In this document: positions 1 to 12,489 of the stretch, piece after piece
Numbering within the stretch: the first letter of the stretch is position 1
Layout of the letters: the number at the start of each line of letters is the position of its first letter
Virus record (IMG/VR): IMGVR_UViG_2636415416_000016
From: a virus
Taxonomy: Duplodnaviria > Heunggongvirae > Uroviricota > Caudoviricetes
DNA: 12,489 nucleotides
Reading direction: 5' to 3' (one strand)
The notes under the pieces: model-generated
The model's database searches: none
Seen by the model: only the letters and a program-made list of their open reading frames with translations
Told to the model about the DNA's origin: nothing
Made by a program: the position numbers and the translations under genes

Positions 1-516
1 TTAATTACGTAAGCGTTGATAAAAGAGTCGGATGCAGCCCAGTTTCACCATCGCCAGGTAATTTCTCGCCGTTTTGTCGTAACGCGTGGCGATGCGGCGA
101 TATTCTTTCAGCCGCCCAAAGCACCGTTCAACGACATTACGATTGCAGTACGCATCACGATCAAGCTGTGCACGTCCATCCGATGCCATTTTCTCATTTG
201 ACTTTCGGGGGATTACTGCCTTTATACCGTTATTTTTCAGCTCGTTGCGCAATGCGCGCCCTGAATACGCTTTATCAGCCAGTACCGCATGTCCACGGCG
301 TTTCATGCTGCCGTTCTGACGCTGAACGCCAATCCCGTCCAGAAGTCGTTGCGCGAACTGGCTTTCATGAGCTTGTCCGGGGCTTAGCACGATATTTAAC
401 GGGAGGCCACTTCCGTCTGTTGCCAGATGGATTTTGGTGCCAAAACCGCCGCGAGAGCGACCCAGCCCATTATCTCCGTCGATATCGGGATGTTTTTTTG
501 AGCACCGGCGGCACAT
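1..516 (-). CDS. IS5-family transposase OrfB (DDE catalytic part), probably made as an OrfAB fusion by -1 frameshift
   Basis: 171-codon frame overlapping OrfA by 121 nt in the -1 frame. C-terminal motif NVVERCFGRLKEYRRIATRYDK is typical of IS5-family DDE transposases. Stop TAA at 1-3. Confidence 0.6.
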   Translation of the reverse strand: MCRRCSKKHPDIDGDNGLGRSRGGFGTKIHLATDGSGLPLNIVLSPGQAHESQFAQRLLDGIGVQRQNGSMKRRGHAVLADKAYSGRALRNELKNNGIKAVIPRKSNEKMASDGRAQLDRDAYCNRNVVERCFGRLKEYRRIATRYDKTARNYLAMVKLGCIRLFYQRLRN

Positions 517-764
517 TTCAGCGCCCGGATATTACTGCCATCCAGCGCGGTGGCAGACCAGTCAATAAAGCCGTTTGCATCAAGTAGCGAAAGCAACCTG
601 TTGAAAATAATATTAATCACGCCTGACTTTGACCATCGGTTAAAGCGGTTATAAACAGTTTTCCATGACCCATATCGTTCGGGTAAATCGCGCCATGGTG
701 CACCGGAACATAACACCCAGAACATGCCATTGATGATTTTACGGTGCTCAAGCCCCGGCGACAT
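396..764 (-). CDS. IS5-family transposase OrfA (N-terminal DNA-binding part)
   Basis: ATG at 762-764 with an in-frame TAG directly upstream (768-770). Motif FWVLCSGAPWRDLPERYGSWKTVYNRFNRW is typical of the DUF4096-type N-terminus of IS5-family transposases. The N-terminus looks short compared with family members as I recall them, so the element may be 5'-truncated. Confidence 0.6.
   Translation of the reverse strand: MSPGLEHRKIINGMFWVLCSGAPWRDLPERYGSWKTVYNRFNRWSKSGVINIIFNRLLSLLDANGFIDWSATALDGSNIRALKCAAGAQKNIPISTEIMGWVALAAVLAPKSIWQQTEVASR
492..498 (-). other. candidate -1 programmed ribosomal frameshift heptamer A_AAA_AAC
   Basis: Minus strand reads GGT GCT CAA AAA AAC ATC in the OrfA frame. 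A -1 slip on A AAA AAC gives AAA AAA CAT CCC GAT = KKHPD, which is exactly the OrfB frame. Confidence 0.5.
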
Positions 765-1383
765 TACCTATACCCGGAACAACGGAACCAAGTTGCGCAC
801 CCGCTAAAGCGCCTGATGCCGCCCCACCAATACCACGCGCAAGACTGGATGGCTGCTGCGCCTGACCTGCACGAATGGCGCCAAGCCCCTGCAAGAGTTG
901 CCCGGTATTATTGGCGTAGTTTTGCCCTGCTGTTGCCTGCCCTGATGCCGCATTCATCCCGACATTTAGCAGGTTTCCATAATTTTGCATTTGCCCACTG
1001 AGCCAATTGTTATAAAGCATGGGCGCAATGGAAGATAACTGGTTACTGGTAGCTGTTGAGCCAAGCCCCCCGGTAGCTTCTGCTGAGACAAGGTTCTGAT
1101 AACGGGCCTGATCTGCCTGTGTTTTATATAAACCAGAACCAAAGAAATCATTCGCGGCTTTATTCTGCCCTTCCAGAGTCATCAGTCCTTGCAGTTGTTG
1201 TAAAGCAGGCAATCCGACTTCTGCATACGGCTTGAGATTATTCATCACCGTATTCCACTGCTCGCGCTGCAAATCAATTGCCTGCTGCTGGGCCTTCGCC
1301 TGAGCTTTAGAGGCACCACCATCACCGCCTTTTTCGTATACGGCACGATTGAGATGTTTATGAGCTATATGGGTAATTAACAT
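748..1383 (-). CDS. Gly/Gln/Ala/Asn-rich low-complexity protein with coiled-coil-like N-terminal segment; function unknown; 3' end lies inside the IS fragment (disrupted or chimeric C-terminus)
   Basis: ATG at 1381-1383 overlaps the upstream stop (ATGTTAA, 1377-1383), with AAGGAA about 9 nt upstream. Codon usage is coding-like throughout. The frame runs into IS sequence and ends at TGA 748-750, overlapping the transposase OrfA start. Confidence 0.5.
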   Translation of the reverse strand: MLITHIAHKHLNRAVYEKGGDGGASKAQAKAQQQAIDLQREQWNTVMNNLKPYAEVGLPALQQLQGLMTLEGQNKAANDFFGSGLYKTQADQARYQNLVSAEATGGLGSTATSNQLSSIAPMLYNNWLSGQMQNYGNLLNVGMNAASGQATAGQNYANNTGQLLQGLGAIRAGQAQQPSSLARGIGGAASGALAGAQLGSVVPGIGNVAGA

Positions 1384-1838
1384 TCGCTGAATTCCTTATA
1401 TTGTTGCCGAGTTAACTGATAAAGCGTTACGCCGACGGGTTTACCACATCTGATATAAGCATCATCAAGGTGACCAACACGGGTAGCGCCAAGCAAACGG
1501 ATAATTGCCCGTCCATATTTCGTGGTGTCAGGAACCATAGTGATGCTGTTAAGGAATGGTGAGTTTTCGAGAAGCCATTTGCAGAATAATCGATGCCCTT
1601 GCAGTGCATATTCACCACGGAATCCGGGGTCGTACACCGCATGGCATTCAACAACGCTATGCCAGAAGTTACGCACTTCATGAACGCCAGCCAGCACTAA
1701 TCCTTCGTAGATGCCGAGATATACCGCATCAGGCTTGATGTAGTACGAGTGCCCCGGCTCAACAATATTTTCGGTATTGCCTGGCTCGTTAAGAAAGGCC
1801 TGTAATCGCACAGGGTTATCAATAAATTTTAGTTCCAT
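1377..1838 (-). CDS. hypothetical protein, 153 aa
   Basis: ATG at 1836-1838, 16 nt after the stop of the 53-codon ORF. Stop TAA at 1377-1379 overlaps the next start. No family recognised by eye. Confidence 0.6.
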   Translation of the reverse strand: MELKFIDNPVRLQAFLNEPGNTENIVEPGHSYYIKPDAVYLGIYEGLVLAGVHEVRNFWHSVVECHAVYDPGFRGEYALQGHRLFCKWLLENSPFLNSITMVPDTTKYGRAIIRLLGATRVGHLDDAYIRCGKPVGVTLYQLTRQQYKEFSEC

Positions 1839-1854
1839 GCGATGCCATCCATTT

Positions 1855-2016
1855 TCACATACAGCCTGCCAGCGCCTTATCTATTAACCCTCGTGCAATT
1901 TCATGCAGAGTTGGCGCTACTCCAATTCCTGATTTTTTACGCTGCTCTTCCTGAATTTTCTTTATCGCTTCCATTTGCTTCTCACTTATCAATACCGGCT
2001 TTACTGAAATAGCCAT
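1855..2016 (-). CDS. small hypothetical protein, 53 aa (MAISVKPVLISEKQMEAIKKIQEEQRKKSGIGVAPTLHEIARGLIDKALAGCM); possible small DNA-binding regulator
   Basis: Below the length cutoff of the supplied ORF track. ATG at 2014-2016 is preceded by AAGGGGG (2021-2027) at 4-nt spacing; stop TGA at 1855-1857. AT-rich codons lower confidence. The strand-helix-helix pattern is only weakly ribbon-helix-helix-like. Confidence 0.35.
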   Translation of the reverse strand: MAISVKPVLISEKQMEAIKKIQEEQRKKSGIGVAPTLHEIARGLIDKALAGCM

Positions 2017-2111
2017 AACGCCCCCTTATAACTGTATAAAACAACAGTTATTATAGTTTCACAAATCGCAATATTCATCATCGTAATTGCAGAATATGAA
2101 ACAAATAGCAC

Positions 2112-2142
2112 AAAAAAATGCCACCGCTCAGTAGCTGGTGGC
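2112..2142 (-). terminator. rho-independent terminator for the minus-strand replication operon
   Basis: Minus strand reads GCCACC-A-GCT ACTG AGC-GGTGGC followed by A and TTTTTTT (2112-2118): a GC-rich 9-bp stem with one bulge, a 4-nt loop and a U7 tract. On the plus strand the A-run precedes the hairpin, so it is unidirectional. Confidence 0.5.
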
Positions 2143-2337
2143 GTCGTTCTGTGTGTCAGGTTTTGACAGGTTTTTTATGGACTCTAAAAACTATATTTAT
2201 GGTGTCGCATTACTCTTCACGGCAGGCGCTTTTCAGTTCTGCCCTTGCTTCTGGCTCCATTGGTAATTTGATTCGCGATCAGCTATGCGGATGGTTTGCT
2301 GAACAGGCATAACAACTTCTCAGAGGCTGTTTTTTGA

Positions 2338-2356
2338 ACTACGAAAATTTCGTAGT
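2338..2356. repeat. perfect palindrome ACTACGAAA-A-TTTCGTAGT (operator-like, core TACGA-N5-TCGTA)
   Basis: 9-bp arms around a single central base, read directly from the sequence. Confidence 0.55.
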
Positions 2357-2393
2357 GCTCACTTTCAAAAACGTCACGCCCTTGTACACAGGA

Positions 2394-2414
2394 TTTTACG
2401 AAAGTCTCGTAAAA
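2394..2414. repeat. inverted repeat TTTTACGA-AAGTC-TCGTAAAA (second TACGA-N5-TCGTA site)
   Basis: 8-bp arms with a 5-bp spacer. Shares the TACGA-N5-TCGTA core with the 2338-2356 site, centre to centre about 57 bp apart. Confidence 0.55.
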
Positions 2415-2462
2415 CACTCTCTGATGCCAGCCAGGTGTTGTGCGCATCAATTCAGTCACATT

Positions 2463-2600
2463 GTGTTGGTTCAAAATACCGTGTTGTTGGTTCAGTGTTG
2501 GTTCAAAATACCGTGTTGTTGGTTCAGTGTTGGTTCAATAAAAAGAATAAAATCCTTATAAAACAATACCATTTACAAATTGAACCAACTGAACCAACAC
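2463..2600. repeat. iteron array, candidate replication origin: five direct copies of GTGTTGGTTCA, AT-rich spacer, two inverted copies
   Basis: Direct copies at 2463-2473, 2481-2494, 2495-2505, 2513-2526 and 2527-2537 form a 32-bp unit repeated twice plus a partial copy. A 43-bp spacer of about 80 percent A+T (2538-2580) follows. Inverted copies TGAACCAAC and TGAACCAACAC lie at 2581-2589 and 2590-2600. The array starts 24 bp after the primase stop. Confidence 0.6.
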
Positions 2601-2623
2601 CTTTTCTACGCACATGAAGAAGC

Positions 2624-5383
2624 TCATTCTTCAGATGAGTTATAATCTCCTGGCTGGTAATTGAGTACATAAACGTTTATTTGTCGTCCCTGAATACGTG
2701 GTGATTTTCTTTGGTATCCACGACCGCTGTTTGGTGGGGTTAGCATCCCGGCTTTTTTCAACACTTCAGCAAACTGTTTTGCGTTGAAACCACATGCGAT
2801 CTCCTTTTCAAATGTGGCCGGGAATGTGTAGAAAATCATTGGGCTTTCGTCATGTTCTCCACGCTGACGGTATCCGGCTAAATCTTTGATGGGCAAATCT
2901 GCCGGGCTGTATGGAAATGGTGCAAAACGGCTAAGCCCATAGGCATTAAGAAATGCCTCCGTTTGTTCAATAATCTGCTGATGTTCTTTGTTACCTGTGC
3001 CGAACTCGCGCAACCATGCGTTATAGCTGTGCTGTATCGCATCACGGCATGTCTGAGCATCCCAGCCTGTTACAACCTCGCCTAACAGCAATGCGGCCTC
3101 CAGAATGGCAAATCGCGCGGCTACACGGTGAACCTGCTCACCATAATCGGATGGGATCAGGTTTCTCCATCTGCTTTCGCAATCACGAACGGTTTTAATA
3201 GCCTGTTGCTGGTGGTCTGCCAGCCATTTAATCCACTCACGCCCGGCTGCGCCGTGGTGATGCTGGTAAGCGTCTTTCAGTGCGTCTGCGTGCTGTTTTC
3301 CGTTCTGGTAATCGTGAAAGCGTACTGCTTTACTCAACGGAATATTCAGCAGTCGCACCAGTTGCCCGGCTTTGGTTTTTCGCCCGGAAGTAGCGATAAA
3401 TGTTTCTAAATCCATTTCTCCGGTGCTGATTGCCACTGTACGCCAGCGTTTTAGATCCCGGTTTCCACCATCTTTAGCGCCTTGCAGTTTCCCTACACCG
3501 TTAAATAACGCATAGGCAGACTGTGAAACGCTGACAGGATCAGCGCCCTGACCAACTTCATCAAGCGGCATTAGTCCGTCATTGTGGGCGGCGGCCTCAT
3601 TTGCCAGCCCCAGCGCGGTTCCGTACCACGTCAGCCGCAGTAAATCAGGGTTGCCGTATAAGCTGCTCGCCACGTTTGCCGTGGTGGTCTTACCTGCGCT
3701 CGACTGCTCATAGAAATGAATGCCGAACCCGTCAGCGCCCACCAGCCCAATCAATGGCGCTGCCAGTGCTGCGCCGATCCCGGTCATCATTGAATAGTTA
3801 CCAAAGGCCAGACGCGCCACGTTATCACGCCAGCTTTTCGCGCTCCCTGAGACGGTATATCCGGCTGCGGCTGAGCTTCTCCCGCTGAACAGCACAGGAT
3901 TTTCAGGTGTTCCGATGATTTCCCCATCAGGCATGATGTACGCTCCGCATTGCCAGACAGTGGCATGAGCAACACGCCACAATTCACGAGAGCCACTGCG
4001 TTGTAGCCAGTCTGCCAGTATTGCTCTGAGGCTGCTTTTGGTCGTGACATTTACCCCACCAGCTTTAAGTGTGCGCCATCCTTCACGTTCACCAATATCA
4101 GCCAGTGGAATGGCAGCGGTTGTCGGCGTTTCAGAACCAAACGACAGCCAGCGAAGAATGAGATACTGGTCTTTATCGTCTCTGCCAGTACCGATAACGC
4201 TTAACGGAGAACATAACCAGCTTTCGTTATTGATGATTTCTCCACTCTGGCTGTCAGCTCTCGGAGATACCCAATAAATACCATCCTCGCGGCTTTCTAT
4301 TCTTGGTTTCAGTGGGTCGGTATCCATAACCTTAAAATCGCTTCCCTCAATGGTCTGTGGCTCCTGTTTCACGCCATTACCCTGTGGTTGGTACATTGAC
4401 TTATTGAACGCTTCTGTGGCGCATTTAATGCCGTGTTTTTGGTGGTAATCATTCCAGTCTGCTTTGTGATCTGTCGGGGGTAATGCCACCCATCCAGAAA
4501 CAGATAAAGCTGCTTTTTCTGCTGCTATTCTCCCCGTGTTTTGTCTTCCTTCGCTGTGGTCGTTATCCGCAGCAATGATGATTTGTGCTGAAGGAAATTT
4601 ATCCCGCAGTACCTGGGCGACATATAACAGGTTCCCGGCATCAATCGCCGCCACTGTCAGCGCCTCTGGACGAATTAAATGGGCAGATAATGCCGTTGCC
4701 AGCCCTTCTGCGATTAAGATGCTCTGTGTTGTTTCTGGCGCGTTTATGGCGTGATATGCCCCCCGCTTTGCTGAACCTGTCAGGAGTCTTTTTTCACCAT
4801 GTGATGTAATAGTCTGTGCTGCTGTGACTGCGCCGGATTTATCCACCAGCGCCAGCAACAGAGATCCATCGGGCAACACGGGGAATGTAAAATCACCTAC
4901 CCCTTTCGCAACCAGATAATCAGATTTGCCGTTTACAGCCTTTCTGCGCATGTCATCAAACTGACGGGAAAACGTATCCCGTCTTTGTTGTTCGTCCTTC
5001 TCTGCCCTTTTCAGGCGCTCCTGTTCGCGTCGCTGGCGCTCGGTTTCCAGTTGTTCCCGTTTCTGGCTGGTGGCTTCTGGTGTTTCCGTTGTCCGGTAAT
5101 CAATACCCAGAACATCAGCGGCAAGAAGCGCCGCCTCTGTTGTGTCGCAGTTATTTACGCGTTTAATTAAATCCAGCCCATCACCAGCGCCGCACTGATT
5201 ACAGATGAAGCTACCGCGCCCGTTGTCATCGAACCGGAATCGATCTTTGCCCCCACATGCAGGGCAGGGAGCATGACGGCGCGGAGAGTCAGGGACATTT
5301 ATGTTCAGGCAGCCCAGCACATGAGGCCAGTTGTTTTCAGACGCACTGATAACCTGACGGATAAGATCAATGTTTCGCATCAC
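2624..5383 (-). CDS. replication primase-helicase: N-terminal primase zinc ribbon, TOPRIM domain, C-terminal P-loop NTPase (DUF927-like)
   Basis: 919-codon ORF. N-terminus has CPACGGKDRFRFDDNGRGSFICNQCGAGDG (primase zinc-ribbon signature); central IIIAADNDH is a TOPRIM acidic motif; C-terminal half has Walker A SSAGKTT and Walker B LMPLDEV. Start is GTG 5381-5383 or ATG 5378-5380, overlapping the upstream gene stop. Stop TGA at 2624-2626. Confidence 0.85.
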   Translation of the reverse strand: MMRNIDLIRQVISASENNWPHVLGCLNINVPDSPRRHAPCPACGGKDRFRFDDNGRGSFICNQCGAGDGLDLIKRVNNCDTTEAALLAADVLGIDYRTTETPEATSQKREQLETERQRREQERLKRAEKDEQQRRDTFSRQFDDMRRKAVNGKSDYLVAKGVGDFTFPVLPDGSLLLALVDKSGAVTAAQTITSHGEKRLLTGSAKRGAYHAINAPETTQSILIAEGLATALSAHLIRPEALTVAAIDAGNLLYVAQVLRDKFPSAQIIIAADNDHSEGRQNTGRIAAEKAALSVSGWVALPPTDHKADWNDYHQKHGIKCATEAFNKSMYQPQGNGVKQEPQTIEGSDFKVMDTDPLKPRIESREDGIYWVSPRADSQSGEIINNESWLCSPLSVIGTGRDDKDQYLILRWLSFGSETPTTAAIPLADIGEREGWRTLKAGGVNVTTKSSLRAILADWLQRSGSRELWRVAHATVWQCGAYIMPDGEIIGTPENPVLFSGRSSAAAGYTVSGSAKSWRDNVARLAFGNYSMMTGIGAALAAPLIGLVGADGFGIHFYEQSSAGKTTTANVASSLYGNPDLLRLTWYGTALGLANEAAAHNDGLMPLDEVGQGADPVSVSQSAYALFNGVGKLQGAKDGGNRDLKRWRTVAISTGEMDLETFIATSGRKTKAGQLVRLLNIPLSKAVRFHDYQNGKQHADALKDAYQHHHGAAGREWIKWLADHQQQAIKTVRDCESRWRNLIPSDYGEQVHRVAARFAILEAALLLGEVVTGWDAQTCRDAIQHSYNAWLREFGTGNKEHQQIIEQTEAFLNAYGLSRFAPFPYSPADLPIKDLAGYRQRGEHDESPMIFYTFPATFEKEIACGFNAKQFAEVLKKAGMLTPPNSGRGYQRKSPRIQGRQINVYVLNYQPGDYNSSEE

Positions 5384-5738
5384 CGTACCCCACGTGGTCT
5401 ATAGCGTTTGCGATATGGCTAACCAGCATCTGCCACTTGGTTATTCCGTAATCAGTCAGCATGCCATCATTGTTTAGCCACATATCAAATTCAGCGGTTG
5501 TCGCAAGTTTCCACTTATCGCCGTGGACAGTCCTCATTGCTGGGTACATGAATGCGCAAATCAGATCACAAACATCTGACGGCTTCAGAGATGTAGTAAT
5601 GGTGCGTCCCTCTGGCGTCTGAATTGCCATTTTCTCTTCACCAGTAGAATGAAGGTTATGAATCCACACAGCACCAGCAATCTTTGCCACCTGCTCTCCG
5701 ATTGCGGAGCTAAGCGCCATTTCTGCATTTTCACGCAT
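5367..5738 (-). CDS. hypothetical protein, 123 aa
   Basis: ATG at 5736-5738 preceded by GGGAGGT; 8-nt stop-start overlap ATGCGTGA with the upstream gene. The 3' end overlaps the primase start by 14-17 nt. Confidence 0.6.
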   Translation of the reverse strand: MRENAEMALSSAIGEQVAKIAGAVWIHNLHSTGEEKMAIQTPEGRTITTSLKPSDVCDLICAFMYPAMRTVHGDKWKLATTAEFDMWLNNDGMLTDYGITKWQMLVSHIANAIDHVGYGDAKH

Positions 5739-6072
5739 GAGAACCTCCCGCTACAGTTGCGCCCATGTCATTAACCATGCTTTGCCATATCTCACGCCCG
5801 ACGTCAGTCAATCCGTCCTTAGTGACGCAACGCTCAAGAAGCTCGATCCCCACGGTTTCCCACTGCGGGTAGAACACTTTCATGGCTGCCAGTGTGTAGC
5901 TATCGATCAGGCTGCGAACGCCTTTTACTCCATTAACGATTTCCACACGTACGGCCTCGCCGTCCGCATCAACCATGAAATAGTCCCCGCCGCTGGTGGA
6001 GGTAATGTGGTTATACAGTGCCGACGCATACTTATTTGCCAGCGCATTCAGTCGGAAATTTTTAGTAATCAT
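5731..6072 (-). CDS. hypothetical protein, 113 aa
   Basis: ATG at 6070-6072 with GGAG-containing Shine-Dalgarno sequence; 10-nt gap after the upstream stop. Coding-like composition. Confidence 0.6.
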   Translation of the reverse strand: MITKNFRLNALANKYASALYNHITSTSGGDYFMVDADGEAVRVEIVNGVKGVRSLIDSYTLAAMKVFYPQWETVGIELLERCVTKDGLTDVGREIWQSMVNDMGATVAGGSHA

Positions 6073-6082
6073 GGCTCCATCC

Positions 6083-6685
6083 TCAGTGCGTCACTGGTTC
6101 CGCTGGCATGCCGTTTTCATTCAGTTCAGCTATAAAGCTGTTGTGAAGTTCAGCAAGCGTTTCACGACCAAATGGAGTCAGTGCTCCTTGTTCCACATCC
6201 ATCATGGCTCTGTAGAAAATGATGGCGCGTTCTGTGCCAGACTCGATGCCAAAACGTTCTATCATCGCTCCCTCAATGTTGTTTGCCATAGCGAGGCGCT
6301 CTGCTACTGGATACAGCGGCATGGCGACGATGCCGTTGGAATAAACAGCCACTTCGGAAGGATTGCCAGTATCATCAATGATGCTGACAGTGCCGTTTTC
6401 CTCTCTCATTTCCAGCATGAATACTGTTGCGATCAGCCATCTCCACATAATGACGTTATGCTGTGATGTGTAATCGAAATATCCCTGGTTGCCGCCATCG
6501 GCAATAGCGAGATGTATTGACATACCTTCATCTGGTTTATCGTCATAATCCCCGGCATCCAGACGATTTACGGCATCAATATATGAGACGGCCTCAACGC
6601 GTTCTGTCATGCCATCGTTGCTGCGGTACATGATGTTTACGCCGTCAGGCGTTGCTTCTGTATGGAAAGTTAAGAAATTATTCAT
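6083..6685 (-). CDS. hypothetical protein, 200 aa
   Basis: ATG at 6683-6685 is preferred over the TTG at 6790 used by the ORF track. It overlaps the upstream stop as ATGAATAA and has GAGG about 9 nt upstream. The longer N-terminal extension would overlap the well-formed upstream gene. Confidence 0.55.
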   Translation of the reverse strand: MNNFLTFHTEATPDGVNIMYRSNDGMTERVEAVSYIDAVNRLDAGDYDDKPDEGMSIHLAIADGGNQGYFDYTSQHNVIMWRWLIATVFMLEMREENGTVSIIDDTGNPSEVAVYSNGIVAMPLYPVAERLAMANNIEGAMIERFGIESGTERAIIFYRAMMDVEQGALTPFGRETLAELHNSFIAELNENGMPAEPVTH

Positions 6686-6899
6686 GTTTCGCCTCGCCTG
6701 AATGATTCTGTAACTCATATTTGCCCAACAATTCGTCCGCTTCCTGAATAGCTTCTGGTACGCCATTGAGCAGTGACATAACCGCGCCAATCATTAACTT
6801 GTCTCTGTTGCTGGGGCTGGCCCCTTCAAGCCAGAACCCTAAAACAGTCTGAACCTGTTCGATGCGACATTGCGCTTCAATGAGCTGGATGTTGGTCAT
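6678..6899 (-). CDS. hypothetical small protein, 73 aa
   Basis: ATG at 6897-6899 in an ATGA stop-start overlap with the upstream gene; stop TAA at 6678-6680. Confidence 0.55.
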   Translation of the reverse strand: MTNIQLIEAQCRIEQVQTVLGFWLEGASPSNRDKLMIGAVMSLLNGVPEAIQEADELLGKYELQNHSGEAKHE

Positions 6900-7159
6900 T
6901 TCGCACTCTCCACATCGATTAAACTGATATCTATCAGGGAGGTAACTTTTTGTAGCCAGCTATTGATTACTGTCGCCTGTTCCCCGCCCACCGAGGGAAC
7001 AATCTCATTCATCACATGAACCAGACCTGTGCGCGCTCTGGTAAGCCGTTCAGTCGCGCAATCTGCGGGAGTGAATGTGTCTGGATATGGCTCTTCACGC
7101 CCCAGCAATGATTCAATTTCCAGCTCACACGGATGACGATAAATTAAGTTGATATTCAT
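6896..7159 (-). CDS. hypothetical small protein, 87 aa
   Basis: ATG at 7157-7159 preceded by GGGGGTG; ATGA overlap with the upstream stop. Confidence 0.55.
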   Translation of the reverse strand: MNINLIYRHPCELEIESLLGREEPYPDTFTPADCATERLTRARTGLVHVMNEIVPSVGGEQATVINSWLQKVTSLIDISLIDVESAK

Positions 7160-7350
7160 TTTTCACCCCCAAGAATTACCAGCTCGGCACGGGCATCGTT
7201 AACCAAAGATGAGCACGCTTTAATCGCATCCACGACATCAGTAGCGTCCATTTCTTCAGCCGAAAGACTGACAGCAACCAGGACAGCCGCTGCTTGCTCG
7301 ATTAATTGAAGTGCGGACGTAAGGCGAGGGGTATTAATTGAGTTATTCAT
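7156..7350 (-). CDS. hypothetical small protein, 64 aa
   Basis: ATG at 7348-7350 is preferred over the GTG at 7407 used by the ORF track. ATGAATAA overlap with the upstream stop at 7343-7345; G-rich Shine-Dalgarno-like stretch upstream. Confidence 0.5.
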   Translation of the reverse strand: MNNSINTPRLTSALQLIEQAAAVLVAVSLSAEEMDATDVVDAIKACSSLVNDARAELVILGGEK

Positions 7351-7561
7351 TGGTTGCCCCCGTTTTTCCTGGCATTTCGCCACCTTCCAGCAGGAAATGA
7401 ACGTCACGAACGGCGAGATCCAATATCGCGAGTAACGCCTTCAGTCTTTCGTCTCGTGAGGGAGAGTTGCTCACCAGAATGTCGTTAATCACTTCTGTCA
7501 GTGTGATGATCTGGCTTGTGCGTTCGAGGGGATCCATATGCACATCGTAGGTTTTAATCAT
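7343..7561 (-). CDS. hypothetical small protein, 72 aa ([17 protein letters not shown]...); in frame with, and possibly the C-terminal part of, the long 7343-8410 open frame
   Basis: ATG at 7559-7561 preceded by GGAGGTG at about 5 nt; overlaps the stop of the 7554-7748 gene as ATGATTAA. Coding-like codon usage. Confidence 0.4.
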   Translation of the reverse strand: MIKTYDVHMDPLERTSQIITLTEVINDILVSNSPSRDERLKALLAILDLAVRDVHFLLEGGEMPGKTGATNE

Positions 7562-8410
7562 GTGCCACCTCCATGCGGATACGACCAGCAAAAAAGCAGA
7601 TGTGATCGCGCACCAGAGAACGGCGAGCATCGCGTTCAGACTCGGCAGCAATATGATGAATTTTGGCGGTAATTGTCGGGCAATCGCGGCGAACTGCGGC
7701 GATAATCCAGATAAATTGCGGTTTTTGGGTAGTGGTAGTAGCCAGCATGTGGCAGCCTCCTTGTACTGGGAGTTCTTCCCACCACCGGAGCTGCGAAACT
7801 CGCTGGTGGTGGACTGAACAGAGTTCGCAGTACCGGCGTACAAGGAAACCGGCCAGCCTTTCGGCTGCCCTGTCCAGCCCACCATAATTTTGCAAGCGAC
7901 GCGGATTATAACCGCATCACTGAAAAAAGTGTGAGTCTGGCTAACGGCACAAAAAAAGACGCTCGGCGCGTCATGTGTCGCCTCGTACATTTCCGGGCTG
8001 CGAAACCCGGCACCCGTTTTATGAGGTGCCTTATAACCATAAACCGTGTTGCCGCATAACGGCAAGCTCTTTTTTATGGACTCCGAAAACTCACTATTGG
8101 AAGCACCAGATGCACAATACATCGCGCTCATTTCGTTAACGTCGCGCGTGTGGACGAAGGTTTTTGTGGAGTCACTACGCGAGCAGAGAAAGCCATCTAC
8201 GACCAGAAATTCTCTGGCGCAGCCGCCGACCTTCTCAACGCTAACACCATCGACCGTAATTTCTGACATAGTTAAGGCATTCGCTCCCACCACCAGAAAA
8301 TGATAAACTTTGCTTGTATCTGCTGTATTAATGCCAGACTTTGCTGTCATATTGCTGGATTTTGGCGACATACCAGCCAGTGAAAATATCTTCTTCTGGA
8401 CGGTTAGCAT
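7343..8410 (-). CDS. long open frame (355 codons); only the first 220 or so codons (8410 to about 7750) look coding; possibly Ash-family-like (memory only); no in-frame stop before 7343
   Basis: ATG at 8408-8410 preceded by GGAGGT at 6 nt; overlaps the upstream stop (ATGCTAA). Codon usage is good from 8410 to about 7750, poor from 7748 to 7561 where the 64-aa gene occupies another frame, then good again from 7561. The true 3' end is ambiguous. Confidence 0.45.
7554..7748 (-). CDS. small protein, 64 aa ([43 protein letters not shown]...); resembles, from memory only, Icd-like host cell division inhibitor proteins of P4-like elements
   Basis: ATG at 7746-7748 preceded by AAGGAGG (7756-7762) at 7-nt spacing. 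Codon usage in this frame is strongly E. coli-like (all Arg as CGC/CGT, Leu as CTG), whereas the overlapping long frame uses CTA/TTA/CGA/AGG/ATA here. The TTG start at 7895 used by the ORF track is rejected. Confidence 0.5.
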   Translation of the reverse strand: MLATTTTQKPQFIWIIAAVRRDCPTITAKIHHIAAESERDARRSLVRDHICFFAGRIRMEVAHD

Positions 8411-8586
8411 TTGTTAACCTCCGCGAACTCCTTCATGAAGCGCGCCAGCGGTTGTACGCATGGCGATTGATACCCGTCGCGATAAAACGTCACTCGGTTG
8501 TGAGACACGCTTTCGACAGTAACGAGTGCTCCGTGGGCATCCTTGTAGCGTTTTTGAGGTTGTGGTGTTCCTGTCGGCTTAAACAT
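8404..8586 (-). CDS. hypothetical small protein, 60 aa ([60 protein letters not shown])
   Basis: ATG at 8584-8586 preceded by GGAGGTGG; overlaps the antirepressor-like gene stop as ATGTTTAA. The longer N-terminal extension in the ORF track is rejected because it overlaps the upstream gene. Confidence 0.55.
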   Translation of the reverse strand: MFKPTGTPQPQKRYKDAHGALVTVESVSHNRVTFYRDGYQSPCVQPLARFMKEFAEVNKC

Positions 8587-9412
8587 GGACCACCTCCAGA
8601 CGCTTAGCGAGCCAGCGTTGCGACAGGCGGGTGAGTTCTCCTTTGCGCTGCTCATATTCCATGCCCATATCAATTAACGTGATATTGGTGCTTTCGAGAT
8701 ATGAGAGGTGCTCAAGTTGTTCTGCGTTCATATGGTCGCGAGGTTCGCCAGAATAGCCATTTATCCGCGCCCACTGCTTAGCAGTTAGCCCACCAAGAAC
8801 GATACGAGAAATCATATTGCTCTCGTTTGTGTAGTGGTGTTGCTGCGTCGTTTTCCCCTGCTCGGCACGGGCCATATTCAGCGCATCGCACATTGGCTTA
8901 AAGTTGTTTGCGGCACTGATACGGGCTTTTAGCTGGCGACGATAGCGGGCGGCGATTTCAGGAACGCTACGCTGTAATTCTTCCTCGCACTGGATGAAAT
9001 AACGGCGGATAGCGCGACCCTGATCATTGCGTTCGATCATTGCCAGTTCTTTCGCCATTCCGACACTTAACAGATAGTCTTTGCCGGGTCTGCCAGACTG
9101 CTTAATCTTTCTGTAAGCCGCGCCATTCGGGCTTTTCCCCAAATTTGGGGAAATAGTTTTATGGACTGAGTAATCGTGCCCAATGGTGAAGTCATATTCA
9201 GAGATGCGATCAGTGATCCATGTAGAGAAGTCTTTTCCCACGCCCAACGCTTTGTGTAACGCTTTTGCGCTAACAATATTGGTTTCACGCCCACCGATAT
9301 GACCAGGAATAACCGGGACAATTGCGGCAAATTCATTACCGTTAATTGTGCTCAGAGAGGCGTTCAGATGAGGGGCGGCCTCAGAAATTAATCTGCTTTT
9401 TTCGATGTTCAT
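8579..9412 (-). CDS. phage antirepressor-like protein (AntA/AntB-type N-terminal domain), 277 aa
   Basis: ATG at 9410-9412 with GGAG about 8 nt upstream. N-terminal region (KDFSTWITDRISEY ... GRPGKDYLLSVGMAKELAMIERNDQGRAIRRYFIQCEEEL) matches the AntA/AntB antirepressor pattern as I recall it. The C-terminal domain is unassigned. Confidence 0.55.
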   Translation of the reverse strand: MNIEKSRLISEAAPHLNASLSTINGNEFAAIVPVIPGHIGGRETNIVSAKALHKALGVGKDFSTWITDRISEYDFTIGHDYSVHKTISPNLGKSPNGAAYRKIKQSGRPGKDYLLSVGMAKELAMIERNDQGRAIRRYFIQCEEELQRSVPEIAARYRRQLKARISAANNFKPMCDALNMARAEQGKTTQQHHYTNESNMISRIVLGGLTAKQWARINGYSGEPRDHMNAEQLEHLSYLESTNITLIDMGMEYEQRKGELTRLSQRWLAKRLEVVHV

Positions 9413-9424
9413 TTTCAGTCTCCG

Positions 9425-9856
9425 TTAAGCGGCGTTAAACGCGTCCGGGTAGAGTTTCAGAATGTCGGCAATTTCCTGCTGAGAAAGTCCGTTGTGATCA
9501 TTTATGTTCGCAAGATGGTTAATATGAGTGATCACTTTCAGAACATCACCACGGCAGGAGAAACGGTAGCGAAGGTGTGTTCCGATACCATCAGGATTCT
9601 TTTCGTCGATACGCTCCAGAGTGATTCCAAGCTGGCGTTCTAACTCTGTTGCATAGTTACGACCAGAAGACAGACGGCAGTAGCGAAGAATGTCATTTTC
9701 TGTCCATCCCTCTATACCAGTACGCAGCATATAGACTCTGGCACGATGCTTTTTCGGTGTGCGCTTTGGTGCTTGAAGGGATTTTGTAAGGGGCGTAACA
9801 TCAGATACGCGAATATCTGAATTAGCCGCCTGTAATGGGCGGTTTTTCTTATTCAT
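9425..9856 (-). CDS. hypothetical protein, 143 aa, basic N-terminus; possible DNA-binding protein
   Basis: ATG at 9854-9856 overlaps the alpA stop as TAATG. No family recognised by eye. Confidence 0.55.
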   Translation of the reverse strand: MNKKNRPLQAANSDIRVSDVTPLTKSLQAPKRTPKKHRARVYMLRTGIEGWTENDILRYCRLSSGRNYATELERQLGITLERIDEKNPDGIGTHLRYRFSCRGDVLKVITHINHLANINDHNGLSQQEIADILKLYPDAFNAA

Positions 9857-10053
9857 TACGCTACCTCGCCACGCGACTCAGCGATGCGCTGATTAATCCA
9901 TTCTTCAATTTCACTTTCAATAAACGCAATTGATCGGCTTCCAATCTTTACAGATTGAGGGAATCGCTGTTCTTTGATGAGCCGATAAATCCACGCTTTG
10001 CTGTAACCAGTACGGCGTTGAACCTCAGAAAGACGAATAAATGATTGAGACAT
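9856..10053 (-). CDS. alpA: AlpA-family phage transcriptional regulator (Vis/AlpA-like helix-turn-helix), 65 aa
   Basis: MSQSFIRLSEVQRRTGYSKAWIYRLIKEQRFPQSVKIGSRSIAFIESEIEEWINQRI fits the AlpA pattern (RL..V...TG.S...IY.L.....FP...K.G.RS..W...EI.EW). ATG at 10051-10053 preceded by AGGAG at 5 nt. It is the first gene of the long operon. Confidence 0.8.
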   Translation of the reverse strand: MSQSFIRLSEVQRRTGYSKAWIYRLIKEQRFPQSVKIGSRSIAFIESEIEEWINQRIAESRGEVA

Positions 10054-10171
10054 GTTTACTCCTATATTCTGTCATCTTCTTTAATGGACATCAGTAGACA
10101 GAAAGGAGATTAAACAAACCGGTGAATGGGTGATAGCGGATAAAAATAAAATATTTTTTTGAGAAGATTAT

Positions 10172-10206
10172 CCGCTTTGAAATACACAGTAGCGTATTCA
10201 AAGCGG
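10172..10206. repeat. inverted repeat CCGCTTTGAA-N15-TTCAAAGCGG between the acidic cargo gene and alpA; possible terminator or operator
   Basis: 10-bp perfect arms at 10172-10181 and 10197-10206, flanked by A/T runs. On the minus strand no U-tract follows immediately, so it is not a canonical terminator. Confidence 0.4.
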
Positions 10207-10250
10207 AAATCGCGAAATTTACTTAAAACGTTTACGTAGGATTTTGCTTG

Positions 10251-11132
10251 CTATAAATCTCTACTCATTAAATCAGATATTTTTATCAAGCTCATTTCTC
10301 TGTCTTTGTTTACATAAAGCTGAAGCAAGCGGGTGTATCTCTCGCTTATAGATTCAAGTGCAAAAGGCTTTATTGATTCCTTAATAGCCTGCGTATCTTT
10401 CGGATCATCACTAAAAACCAAGGCAGAAATCATCGGATTGCTCACTTCCTTACCTGACTTCTCACCCCAAATCAGCAGATCAACAATAGGTATCACTCTA
10501 TTAGATATCAACTTCTGAAGGGTCTTTAATCCAATCCTTTTCTGAGCGACATGCTCTCTCTCTGGTACTTTTAACTCTTTTCGCCATAGAGGTAGAAGGT
10601 GAGTCAGGCTGGTAATAATTTCGTCATCAGTGGCGTCATCTAAATCTATAGAAACGAGTATGATGTTAGGGGAACAATTACTTAGGTTTCCAGTAACACT
10701 CGCAAGCATAGCGTTTGCCTTGAGGTAGCAATCCTCTTCGTCTCTTTTAAAAAAGCCTTGATCTATCGATGAGAAAGAGTACATGGCCAGCTCTGAAAAT
10801 GTTACTGGACTAACCCCCATAGCTGAAGATAATGAGGGAAGATCATCGTACTCATTTCTTAATGATGGGGCTTCATCATTTACTTTGCGAATAAATTCTT
10901 CGACCTCTTCCTCTTCTTCATTGAGAATGGTTAGGTTAGGATCGCCCGAAAAAATCCTTTCATATTTTATATCGTACTCTTCTTTGAATATAGCAGTGTC
11001 ATCTTTTGCATGACGCAATAAAAAATCGCGCCACTCTAATTCTTGAATCAAGTCCGGCAAGGTTAAATCATTTAAAAATTCATAATTACTAATATCAAAC
11101 CATGCTAAATCTTGTTTTTTGGCTCTCACCAT
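10251..11132 (-). CDS. highly acidic hypothetical protein, 293 aa, encoded by a low-GC gene; cargo between integrase and alpA
   Basis: ATG at 11130-11132, stop TAG at 10251-10253. Sampled stretches are about 37-43 percent G+C against more than 50 percent in neighbouring genes. Asp/Glu greatly outnumber Lys/Arg, with an EEEEEVEE run. No P-loop, nuclease or transmembrane motifs seen by eye. Confidence 0.65.
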   Translation of the reverse strand: MVRAKKQDLAWFDISNYEFLNDLTLPDLIQELEWRDFLLRHAKDDTAIFKEEYDIKYERIFSGDPNLTILNEEEEEVEEFIRKVNDEAPSLRNEYDDLPSLSSAMGVSPVTFSELAMYSFSSIDQGFFKRDEEDCYLKANAMLASVTGNLSNCSPNIILVSIDLDDATDDEIITSLTHLLPLWRKELKVPEREHVAQKRIGLKTLQKLISNRVIPIVDLLIWGEKSGKEVSNPMISALVFSDDPKDTQAIKESIKPFALESISERYTRLLQLYVNKDREMSLIKISDLMSRDL

Positions 11133-11274
11133 ACGCCACCCCGCGCCCCTAATTCTGACGGCTATGCCAGCCCGTAGGGGTGTACGGGTTTTCGGGGATC
11201 AGCCTAGACATAGCCTATTCTTTGTTCGTCTACATAAGTCTACTACCATTGCTTAACACGGTCTATTCATACAG

Positions 11275-12489
11275 TTAAGCTCGTTTCCCAAACGAACCAT
11301 GAACAACGTTCTCCTCCTTCTCCAGCGCATCCATATAGTCGGCATACCATTGAAGCATCTCCCGCCTTCCATCCAGATATTGCGCATGGTTGTATGTGCC
11401 ACGAATTGAGTTCTTATCAACGTGAGCGAGCTGCGTTTCTATCCACGCGGTGTTATAGCCCTGCTCATGCAAAATCGTGCTCATAGTGTGCCGGAACCCA
11501 TGACCAGTTACACGTCCAGCGTAGCCAATGCGCTTAAACACTTGGTTTATGCTGGCCTCACTCATTGTTTTCCTTGGATCATTGCGCCCGGGAAACATAA
11601 GAGGGTAATTGCCTGTTATTTCTCTAATCTTCCCAATAAGCGAAAGAGCCTGATCAGACAATGGCACAATATGAGGCCGCCGCATTTTCATACGTGAAGC
11701 GGGTATCTCCCAGATAGCCTTGTTGAAATCAATTTCATCCCATAATGCGCCACGTAGTTCGCCAGTCCGCAAGCCGGTGATAATCAGTAGACGAGCCGCC
11801 ATAACAACCAATGCGCTTCTTGAGTAACTGGACAATGCCTTGAAAAAATCAGGTAATTCTTTAGCTGTAAGGAAAGGGTAATGATTAGATTCATGGCCTT
11901 GCATCGCGCTAGTAAGGTCTGGTGCAGGGTTATACTCTGCGCGACCAGTGACTATTGCATAGCGGAAAACTTCCCCGCACCGCTGCCTCACTTTTTTGGC
12001 TTTTTCTGTAGCACCGCGCCCCTCGATGCGCCGCAGCACATTCAGAAGTTCAAGTGGTTTGATTTCGGCGATTGGTTTTTTGCCAATGTAAGGGAACACA
12101 TCTTTGTTGAAGGCTTCGAGGATGTCTGAAGCATAACCAGCAGACCATTTTTTTAATTTGCTGCTGTGCCACTCAAGGGCAATATCTTTGAAGGTGTTGT
12201 TTAACTGCGTTTCCCGGGCAATCTTTTCCTCTCGTTTCGCTTCCATCGGATCGATACCACCAGCGATACCTCTTTTCGCATCTTCACGTTTTGCCCGAGC
12301 ATCGGCTAGAGTAACCTCAGGATACACACCTAGTGCCAATAGCTTCTCTTTACCAGCTACACGATATTTAAGTCGCCAGTATTTACCTCCATTAGGTTTT
12401 ACCAAGAGATACAAACCGCCACCATCGGCCAGCTTGTAAGCCTTCTCTTTTGGCTTGGCTGTGTCTATTTGACGGGCATTGAGTTTCAC
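11275..12489 (-). CDS. int: P4-type tyrosine integrase (site-specific recombinase)
   Basis: N-terminus KLNARQIDTAKPKEKAYKLADGGGLYLLVKPNGGKYWRLKYR is the classic P4-integrase arm-binding signature. C-terminal catalytic region has HGFRH and the RGTYNHAQY tyrosine motif. Stop TAA at 11275-11277. The frame starts at the window edge (GTG 12487-12489), so the true start may lie just beyond the window. Confidence 0.9.
   Translation of the reverse strand: MKLNARQIDTAKPKEKAYKLADGGGLYLLVKPNGGKYWRLKYRVAGKEKLLALGVYPEVTLADARAKREDAKRGIAGGIDPMEAKREEKIARETQLNNTFKDIALEWHSSKLKKWSAGYASDILEAFNKDVFPYIGKKPIAEIKPLELLNVLRRIEGRGATEKAKKVRQRCGEVFRYAIVTGRAEYNPAPDLTSAMQGHESNHYPFLTAKELPDFFKALSSYSRSALVVMAARLLIITGLRTGELRGALWDEIDFNKAIWEIPASRMKMRRPHIVPLSDQALSLIGKIREITGNYPLMFPGRNDPRKTMSEASINQVFKRIGYAGRVTGHGFRHTMSTILHEQGYNTAWIETQLAHVDKNSIRGTYNHAQYLDGRREMLQWYADYMDALEKEENVVHGSFGKRA

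Follow-up and report, generated by a model that had tools for sequence, protein, structure and literature searches.

Closest described systems and the island under study

At the immI locus of phage P1, an antisense RNA masks the ribosome-binding site of icd, and the genes downstream depend on icd translation. In the satellite P4, Cnr reportedly acts through the alpha primase-initiator, and it does so via the C-terminal DNA-binding region of alpha. Cnr is the product of the P4 gene that controls copy number (PMC8628076). EcCIMP1 is a phage-inducible chromosomal island (PICI) of Escherichia coli MP1 (Pick, Stadel & Raivio 2025, PMC11773190); its excision and transduction have been shown by experiment, only with the P22-like phage Kapi1, and neither Kapi1 titres nor CI expression are changed by the island (PMC11773190). 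The stretch analyzed here, IMG/VR record IMGVR_UViG_2636415416_000016 (12,489 nucleotides (nt), hereafter the window), carries an element of this kind, in which six small genes, g1 to g6, lie immediately upstream of a primase gene. The window is 98.2% identical to EcCIMP1 (9,310 nt) over positions 751-10047, and the int genes share 98.3% identity. Moreover, the series of coding sequences (CDS) and the gene order are those of EcCIMP1 in MP1, the six CDS of the block included. Judged by its sequence, the element is an EcCIMP1-type PICI, a satellite of P22-like phages, and has been described already.

The reading put forward here is that the six open reading frames (ORFs) form the promoter-distal part of an RNA-gated chain of eight genes that runs into the primase gene, and that g4, g5, and g6 tune the primase-helicase. 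Taken as a whole, this reading is judged to stand at about an even chance.

The six-gene block and the chain to which it belongs

The ORFs of 64, 87, 73, 200, 113, and 123 codons that a sequence-only reading had placed at 5367-7350 were recovered with exactly these limits on the minus strand, followed by the primase gene:

7156-7350, minus strand: g1, 64 amino acids (aa), acidic
6896-7159, minus strand: g2, 87 aa, acidic
6678-6899, minus strand: g3, 73 aa, acidic
6083-6685, minus strand: g4, 200 aa, very acidic; an N-terminal beta/alpha domain, then a Cnr-like C-terminal domain (aa ~74-191)
5731-6072, minus strand: g5, 113 aa; paralogue of the g4 C-terminal domain
5367-5738, minus strand: g6, 123 aa; g5 paralogue, the last codons of which overlap the primase start
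2624-5383, minus strand: primase-helicase, 919 aa (Zn ribbon, Toprim, DUF927; Pfam), last gene of the operon

The genes are coupled, as had been claimed, either through overlaps of 4 or 8 nt or across a gap of 10 nt. In particular, an ATGA read from the sequence is common to both genes at the g1/g2 and g2/g3 junctions, g3 and g4 overlap by 8 nt (ATGAATAA), g4 and g5 are separated by 10 nt, g5 and g6 again overlap by 8 nt (ATGCGTGA), and g6 overlaps the primase start by 14-17 nt. The claim that each gene has its own ribosome-binding site is borne out as well: a Shine-Dalgarno (SD)-like site precedes each of g1-g6, with anti-SD duplexes of -6.8 to -11.0 kcal/mol, compared with a window mean of -2.5 kcal/mol and a level of -6 kcal/mol that only 11% of random positions reach. 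RefSeq/PGAP calls the identical six CDS in E. coli genomes. In comparisons with orthologues in Kosakonia, Enterobacter, Cedecea, Serratia, and Yersinia, the non-synonymous proportion of differences (pN) is well below the synonymous one (pS) for each of the six, and the corresponding rate ratio (dN/dS) is 0.14-0.36 where dS is not saturated. Since they are coupled, SD-preceded, RefSeq-called, and show far fewer non-synonymous than synonymous differences, the six ORFs are genes and, on this comparative evidence, are under purifying selection.

The chain does not start at g1, and its extent had been undercounted. Two further genes, equally coupled, precede the block:

7554-7748, minus strand: Icd-like gene, 64 aa; first ORF after the C4 RNA described below, in another frame; NCBIfam NF033153 (phage_ICD_like)
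7343-7561, minus strand: g0, 72 aa, acidic, unannotated; anti-SD duplex -10.6 kcal/mol

The Icd-like ORF scores 68.5 bits against NF033153 (cut-off 25), is preceded by a perfect AAGGAGG site (anti-SD duplex -11.4 kcal/mol), has a dN/dS of 0.15-0.22, and is annotated by PGAP in E. coli MP1. It overlaps g0 by 8 nt (ATGATTAA), and g0 overlaps g1 by ATGA. The g0 orthologue in Serratia, also of 72 aa, aligns without gaps at 37.5% identity (pN 0.40 versus pS 0.81) and has the identical 8-nt overlap. The icd/g0 and g0/g1 overlaps imply that the coupled chain consists of the icd-like gene, g0, g1-g6, and the primase gene. All of g0-g6 are acidic (isoelectric point (pI) 4.2-5.6); the Icd-like protein is basic (pI 9.5).

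The sequence-only reading had compared the block with the position in P4 that holds epsilon and kil-type genes. A kil-type candidate does exist, namely the Icd-like gene just before the block; it lies outside the six, and none of g1-g6 matches NF033153. An epsilon equivalent was not recovered: the six do not match PF25738 in Pfam, and comparisons with epsilon, by BLAST for all six and by hhalign for the families of g4, g5, and g6, gave noise. Nor was any similarity found between the six genes and P4 orf151, orf88, or alpha.

A probable RNA switch upstream of the chain

Two RNA genes and a pair of target sites lie upstream of the Icd-like gene:

7952-8029, minus strand: isrK-type leader RNA (Rfam RF01394, 69 bits, gathering score 50)
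7802-7889, minus strand: C4/CI-type antisense immunity RNA (Rfam RF01695, 81 bits, gathering score 45, full length)
7758-7786, minus strand: C4 targets, GGUGGUGG (7786-7779) and GUACAAGGA (7766-7758)

The isrK RNA ends in a hairpin with a U7 terminator (a terminator-like stem-loop and U-run, 7972-7958) and occurs in the equivalent position in P4 and in the related loci L003, L004, L104, and L106; the C4 RNA is likewise found in related islands and in P4. Nucleotides 44-52 of the C4 loop, UCCUUGUAC (window 7838-7846), are a perfect 9-nt complement of GUACAAGGA, which overlaps the AAGGAGG SD site of the icd-like gene. A second exact pairing, between C4 nt 78-85 (CCACCACC) and GGUGGUGG, is situated 20 nt upstream. 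Across six elements, i.e., the window and the following five, the C4 loop co-varies with the site before icd:

Serratia L104: C4 loop UCCGAUAAC, site before icd GUUAUCGGA
L106: C4 loop UCCUGUAAC, site before icd GUUACAGGA
Enterobacter L004: C4 loop UCUGUGGAA, site before icd UUCCACAGA
Kosakonia L003: C4 loop CCAUUCGA, site before icd UCGAAUGG
P4: C4 loop UCCUGUGA, site before icd UCACAGGA

Because loop and site differ between elements in a complementary way, the C4-icd pairing is conserved. The loop and site variants of the window, L003, L004, L104, L106, and L022 apparently represent a set of distinct immunity specificities. In the related island L105, no C4 or isrK is detectable, and a divergent 64-aa gene (4913-5107), resembling a ribbon-helix-helix protein by eye, stands before the icd-like gene; here, a protein repressor may have replaced the RNA switch.

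PGAP annotates a 355-codon 'ash family protein' ORF at window 7343-8410 on the minus strand, within which the isrK and C4 genes lie. Its reading frame differs from that of the icd-like gene, which it crosses, and coincides with that of g0, into which it continues. Its Pfam Phage_ASH match (aa 124-232, nt 7715-8041) coincides exactly with both RNAs, and the obsolete 137-aa 'cI' ORF of P4 likewise matches Phage_ASH over the CI RNA. For the most part, the 'ash' ORF covers RNA genes, and it conceals two genes that are real, the icd-like gene and g0; the Phage_ASH family itself probably represents the translation of an RNA region. In P4-like satellites, PF10554 has served to mark 'epsilon' (PMC8628076), although P4 epsilon itself matches PF25738 (9e-51).

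Relationship of g4 to Cnr

None of the six genes receives an assignment in Pfam, NCBIfam, or PADLOC, and in PHROGs they match only families of unknown function. The earlier statement that no motif could be assigned holds for these databases; it gives way for g4, which profile-profile comparison connects with Cnr.

Cnr (P4 ORF106) is the founding member of Pfam DUF5375 (PF17345). g4 matches PHROG 1515 (E 5.5e-47) and has 550 homologues at E <= 1e-3, all unnamed, which fall into 123 cluster representatives at 50% identity. A family profile built from a 59-sequence alignment was compared by hhalign with P4 Cnr alone, giving a probability of 90.5, an E of 1.4e-6, and a score of 39.8, against 11.2 +/- 1.9 (maximum 16.5) for 200 shuffled sequences; other P4 proteins score 9-24 with the same family. 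The alignment with Cnr alone covers Cnr residues 9-101, and at its widest the aligned stretch reaches residues 7-102, practically the whole length of Cnr. A four-member Cnr family was also assembled from E. coli P4-like elements, viral contigs having yielded only near-identical Cnr copies. Against these four diverged proteins the probability is 88.8 and the score 39.2 (column-shuffle null 11.3 +/- 2.1), so that z relative to shuffles is ~13-15. Moreover, DUF5375 is the sole Pfam family matched by more than one g4-family member, weakly and by two of the 59 (best E 0.16), and a conserved C-terminal histidine ends the g4, g6, and Cnr families. g4 is, with a high degree of likelihood on these comparisons, a remote homologue of P4 Cnr.

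Cnr is a single-domain protein of ~106 aa, whereas g4, at 200 aa, is extended at the N-terminus by a further domain (aa 1-73) and contains a beta hairpin (aa 98-123) with no equivalent in Cnr. Conserved residues of g4 include D48, R82, W83, R130, E138, and Y158. In the window, g5 and g6 separate g4 from the primase; g4 is directly beside the primase in 24 of 77 related loci (see below), at a junction of -4 to +11 nt. The AlphaFold2 (AF2) model of g4 has a pLDDT of 95.2 and that of g5 a pLDDT of 92.4; neither has a fold match among solved structures, the g4 model has none in BFVD either, and PDB sequence and profile searches gave nothing credible for the g4 family or the joint g5 and g6 family.

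g5 and g6 as paralogues of the g4 C-terminal domain

g5 matches PHROG 37628 (E 1.2e-49) and has 130 homologues; g6 has only 21. The two find each other in blastp (E 7.7e-4), and their families align by hhalign with a probability of 50 and a score of 30.0 versus a null of 12.8 +/- 2.8. Their joint alignment is collinear, with A18, L55, W71, G92, and W96 invariant. The C-terminal two-thirds of g4 align with this joint family at a score of 29.3 (column-shuffle null 11.9 +/- 2.2), and paralogy among g4, g5, and g6 reaches z values of 6-8 against column shuffles. In two independent AF2 models, g4 74-191 and g5 6-107 share one order of secondary-structure elements, in which a long helix is followed by a beta hairpin, a pair of helices, a mini-hairpin with a G-x-LT-x-x-G motif, and a final helix. 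g5 and g6 are tied to Cnr only via g4. Overall, one superfamily that includes Cnr is represented three times in tandem, by g4, g5, and g6, and the place of g5 and g6 in this Cnr-containing superfamily is considered likely.

The small acidic proteins g0-g3

The promoter-proximal members have pI values of 4.2-4.8 and, by inspection of their sequences, a helix-loop-helix look. Searches of Pfam, NCBIfam, PADLOC, and PDB returned no relative for g0-g3; for g2, the PDB search gave a match to a designed repeat protein with no passing stretch. g3 matches PHROG 20558 (E 2.9e-9), a family of unknown function. Orthologues are nevertheless recognizable: for g1 in Serratia (41% identity, dN/dS 0.33), for g2 in Kosakonia and Enterobacter (52-53% identity, pN 0.30 versus pS 0.90), and for g3 at 44-45% identity with a dN/dS of 0.22-0.36. 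Tandem g3-like genes occur as two copies in Cedecea L005 (9126-9586) and also in four other loci, and in L141, L149, and L150 they lie upstream of the primase; such tandem genes in relatives imply that cassettes duplicate as well as swap. That the 'ash' C-terminus/g0, g1, g2, and g3 might be helical hairpins of common descent was rejected as unsupported, profile comparisons of the small family alignments having given probabilities of <7%. g1-g3 appear to come from unrelated families without an assignable function.

Distribution of the gene families

The 1,984-nt six-gene block matches 561 of 5,426 complete E. coli genomes, several of them at 100% identity. Co-occurrence across islands was surveyed with the primase as bait, which collected 77 loci from viral contigs at 52-100% primase identity; upstream ORFs were classified by family profiles. 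The icd family was found in 70 of the 77 loci, g4 in 48, g5 in 30, g3 in 28, g2 in 26, a further family of ~65-aa proteins (g69) in 16, g0 in 12, g1 in eight, and g6 in seven. There are 23 architectures, and slot order is largely kept: the order g1, g2, g3, g69, g4, g5, g6 is violated in just two of 107 adjacent pairs. The neighbour of the primase is g4, g5, or g6 in 54 loci and elsewhere some other, non-Cnr-like small gene. A g4 homologue of only 30% identity likewise stands 10 nt before a DUF927 primase, preceded by four ~65-aa genes. The block is a mosaic: early genes are exchanged within a fixed order of slots, and Cnr-like members are frequent, not obligatory.

Three E. coli P4-like elements (L190-L192) carry, in this order, alpA, an Icd-like gene, a ~74-aa gene, DUF5375 (Cnr), and the primase. 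The annotated Icd-like CDS there has ~183 aa and presumably extends across the CI RNA, like the 'ash' ORF in the window. The ~74-aa gene was considered as a relative of g0-g3, and profile comparison finds it unrelated.

The primase and a probable origin

Over its N-terminal 360 aa, the primase is 33% identical to P4 alpha. Two features lie beyond its stop codon:

2463-2600, no strand assigned: candidate origin, seven GTTGGTTCA iterons, five direct and two inverted
2120-2135, minus strand: terminator-like hairpin with a U-run (consensus match only), which would end the operon

The direct GTTGGTTCA iterons are spaced alternately by 21 and 11 nt in a stretch of 41% GC right after the primase stop. 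The position agrees with the origin downstream of pri described for Gram-negative PICIs (PMC10111431), and the iteron stretch is a probable origin of replication.

Proposed mechanism and alternative explanations

By analogy with P1 immI and P4, in the resting island C4 would block icd translation, transcription would stop, and the chain and primase would be silent. Upon entry or induction, the C4 block would be relieved and the chain expressed together with the primase. g0-g3, unrelated small acidic proteins in promoter-proximal slots that are freely swapped between islands, would most likely be stoichiometric binders of host or helper proteins. The primase-proximal slots hold between one and three proteins of one superfamily (g4, g5, g6), which would most likely associate with the primase-helicase/initiator and adjust its activity at the iteron origin that lies directly beyond the primase gene. 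Among the roles that the sequence-only reading had suggested, that of a replication accessory fits g4-g6 because g4 is a probable remote homologue of Cnr, which is encoded directly upstream of P4 alpha; g1-g3 are left without an assignment in this respect. Taken alone, modulation of the primase or initiator by g4-g6 is a tentative proposal, held at somewhat below an even chance. It is graded low because the relevant region of alpha is not conserved in this primase, relatives can dispense with the genes, the family also occurs away from replication genes, and g4 is far more acidic than Cnr.

The observations behind this grading, and several others, weigh against the proposed mechanism. g4 does not match Pfam DUF5375 (PF17345) at E <= 10, the gathering score not being reached, and is strongly acidic (net charge -21), in contrast to the neutral Cnr; profile comparisons detect no direct similarity of g5 or g6 to Cnr. 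The C-terminal part of the primase has no BLAST-detectable counterpart of the alpha C-terminal region. Of the 77 loci, 22 have no g4, g5, or g6 immediately upstream of the primase and 18 have none of the recognized block families (g1-g6, g69), from which it follows that Cnr-like genes are dispensable for this primase type; the notion of a Cnr-like gene as obligatory primase partner was dropped, given that the same 22 loci have another small gene or none beside the primase. Homologues of g4 and g5 also occur in complete temperate phages (phi467, phiP27, Stx phages, Klebsiella prophages). In the two contexts inspected, phi467 and phiP27, the g4-type genes lie in the early-left operon between the repressor and xis/int, away from the replication genes, and a Yersinia prophage with icd-, g2-, short g4-, and g5-like genes uses DnaB/DnaC-type replication. 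Much of this could be accommodated if g4-g6 had a role unrelated to the primase that is shared with temperate phages, e.g., a host-protein target, and their adjacency to the primase merely reflected a compact operon. The 36 phage records with g4-family genes and the ~30% of related primases without g4-g6 genes would then be expected. Such a role is nonetheless thought somewhat unlikely, in view of a primase-proximal slot that is fixed across 52-100% primase identity and at 30% g4 identity, the parallel with cnr-alpha in P4-like elements, and the Zn-ribbon/Toprim primase that at least one g4/g5-positive phage, phi467, also encodes.

It is unlikely that the six genes are epsilon/kil-type effectors of helper derepression or host takeover with no role in replication. 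This explanation would suit early, immunity-controlled genes situated where P4 has epsilon and orf151, all of them small and acidic like many protein-binding inhibitors, in a chain headed by an Icd-like division-inhibitor gene; g2-, g4-, and g5-like genes in temperate-phage PL-type operons, the usual site of host-takeover genes, would also suit it. However, neither P4 epsilon (PF25738) nor orf151 nor any antirepressor family resembles the six, and g4 appears to be specifically related to the replication regulator Cnr. Helper derepression in particular, another of the suggested roles, finds no positive evidence: an AntA-family gene upstream in the island is the more obvious candidate, and the presence of EcCIMP1 left Kapi1 titres and CI expression unaltered (PMC11773190). 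An anti-defence cassette array, with the block or part of it first expressed on entry and inhibiting restriction or immune systems, is very unlikely. Positive evidence for it is nil, and Pfam and PHROGs reveal no similarity to known anti-restriction or anti-defence families, even though small, acidic, early genes that turn over fast in fixed slots (23 architectures in 77 loci), families common to temperate-phage early operons, and a g4 charge that recalls DNA-mimic inhibitors are what such an array might look like. That some of the six are chance ORFs, as might be supposed of short ORFs without a family assignment, is hardly credible when pN is well below pS for all six against orthologues in other genera, SD sites and start-stop overlaps are conserved, the AF2 models of g4 and g5 exceed a pLDDT of 92, and homologues occur across Enterobacterales.

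A broader reading, which joins the chain model to the exchange with temperate phages, treats the stretch from the RNA to the primase as a hypervariable, slot-ordered early-effector locus of Enterobacterales satellites that trade cassettes with temperate phages; it is viewed as distinctly unlikely in its full form. If it were true, g0-g3 would be helper- or host-specific inhibitors, acting in counter-defence or as determinants of helper range. g4, g5, g6, and Cnr, with a fold that has no solved relative, would be adaptors that load or restrain superfamily 3 (SF3)-type primase-helicases at iteron origins, and several paralogues would let one satellite control its own replication and that of its helper.

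Significance

EcCIMP1-like islands are common, and the region from antirepressor to primase has so far been treated as hypothetical genes plus an 'ash family' ORF. The description of EcCIMP1 leaves the six genes as hypothetical proteins and mentions neither the C4/isrK switch, nor g0, nor the Cnr relationship (PMC11773190). What is new is a probable RNA switch of the P4/P1 type, in which the pairing is specific to each element, the icd-like and g0 genes concealed beneath the 'ash' ORF, the assignment of the primase-proximal genes, three paralogues here, to the probable Cnr superfamily, and the slot-ordered variability of a locus of which the rest is a fast-evolving cassette array. The locus offers an entry point to how a P22-type satellite times and limits its replication, and ~5 protein families, with confident unmatched predicted folds or with no assignment, are candidates for new activities directed at the host or the helper. 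The locus does not represent a novel type of system; small unknown genes are usual in early operons of phages and satellites.

Other features of the island

Every gene of the window is encoded on the minus strand, and those for integrase, AlpA, and the Toprim/DUF927 primase are co-oriented. The PICI layout (int, alpA, and pri co-oriented in an island of ~15-20 kb at a tRNA site) is present. An AntA antirepressor-family gene (Pfam) lies upstream of the C4 RNA. The block is 100% identical in E. coli Combat13F7, in an island adjoining tRNA-Thr/proA, where the order is int, DUF6387, AlpA, a 143-aa gene, AntA, DUF4222, the 'ash family' ORF, the six genes, the Toprim/DUF927 primase, DUF2824, gp7-, gp20-, and gp16-like genes, and PerC.

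The late region of the element, judged by its genes, is not P4-like and carries P22-type ejection-protein genes instead. Homologues of P22 ejection/injection proteins (DUF2824, gp7, gp20, gp16-like) are located at window 748-1838, at 3828-8486 in L001, and at 12598-17766 in L107. A late module with ejection proteins rather than capsid-remodelling or terminase genes is unusual for a PICI. At window 1-764, an insertion sequence (IS) of the IS4/IS5 family (DDE_Tnp_1 and DUF4096, two overlapping ORFs) abuts the gp7-like gene and truncates it (211 aa in the window versus 225 aa in Combat13F7), which implies that this copy of the island has lost its distal part.

Between int and alpA, window 10048-11298 contains a DUF6387 gene, has a GC content of 37-40%, and does not align to EcCIMP1 of MP1; an int-alpA RNA lies in the same interval at 11147-11214. 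This segment is a variable hotspot, placed as the P4 defence hotspot is. DUF6387 has no PADLOC match.

Comparison with known systems

EcCIMP1 of MP1 shares with the window an identical integration site, the tRNA-Thr next to proA (thrW/proA). The two differ in that a DUF6387 gene, absent from MP1, occupies the int-alpA gap of the window, and in that the gp7-like gene of the window is cut by an IS element.

The left operon of P4 (seqA/CI RNA, Icd-like ORF, epsilon, orf151, cnr, alpha) resembles the locus in the order of RNAs and genes: isrK, C4, an RNA-paired Icd-like ORF, small genes, a Cnr-type gene, and a Zn-ribbon/Toprim primase-helicase follow one another in both. The P4 analogy drawn in the sequence-only reading stands in layout, in C4/isrK, in the Icd-like gene, and in the primase N-terminus; it fails in that epsilon and kil are not among the six. 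The window has no homologue of epsilon or orf151 and three Cnr-like paralogues where P4 has one, and g4 possesses an extra N-terminal domain of ~75 aa and a beta-hairpin insertion. The helicase part of the primase is of the DUF927 type instead of the alpha type, sid, delta, and psu are missing, and the helper of this type of satellite is P22-like, not P2-like.

The early-left (PL-type) operons of phi467, phiP27, and the Yersinia prophage hold icd-, g2-, g4-, and g5-like genes in equal relative order, interspersed with other small unknown ORFs; in these temperate phages, however, the series stands apart from the replication module and stops at xis/int. Finally, as in P1 immI (c4 RNA, icd, ant), an RNA pairs with the ribosome-binding region of icd. 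Whereas in P1 icd is followed by an antirepressor gene, here it is followed by the chain of small genes and the primase, and the AntA gene lies upstream of the RNA.

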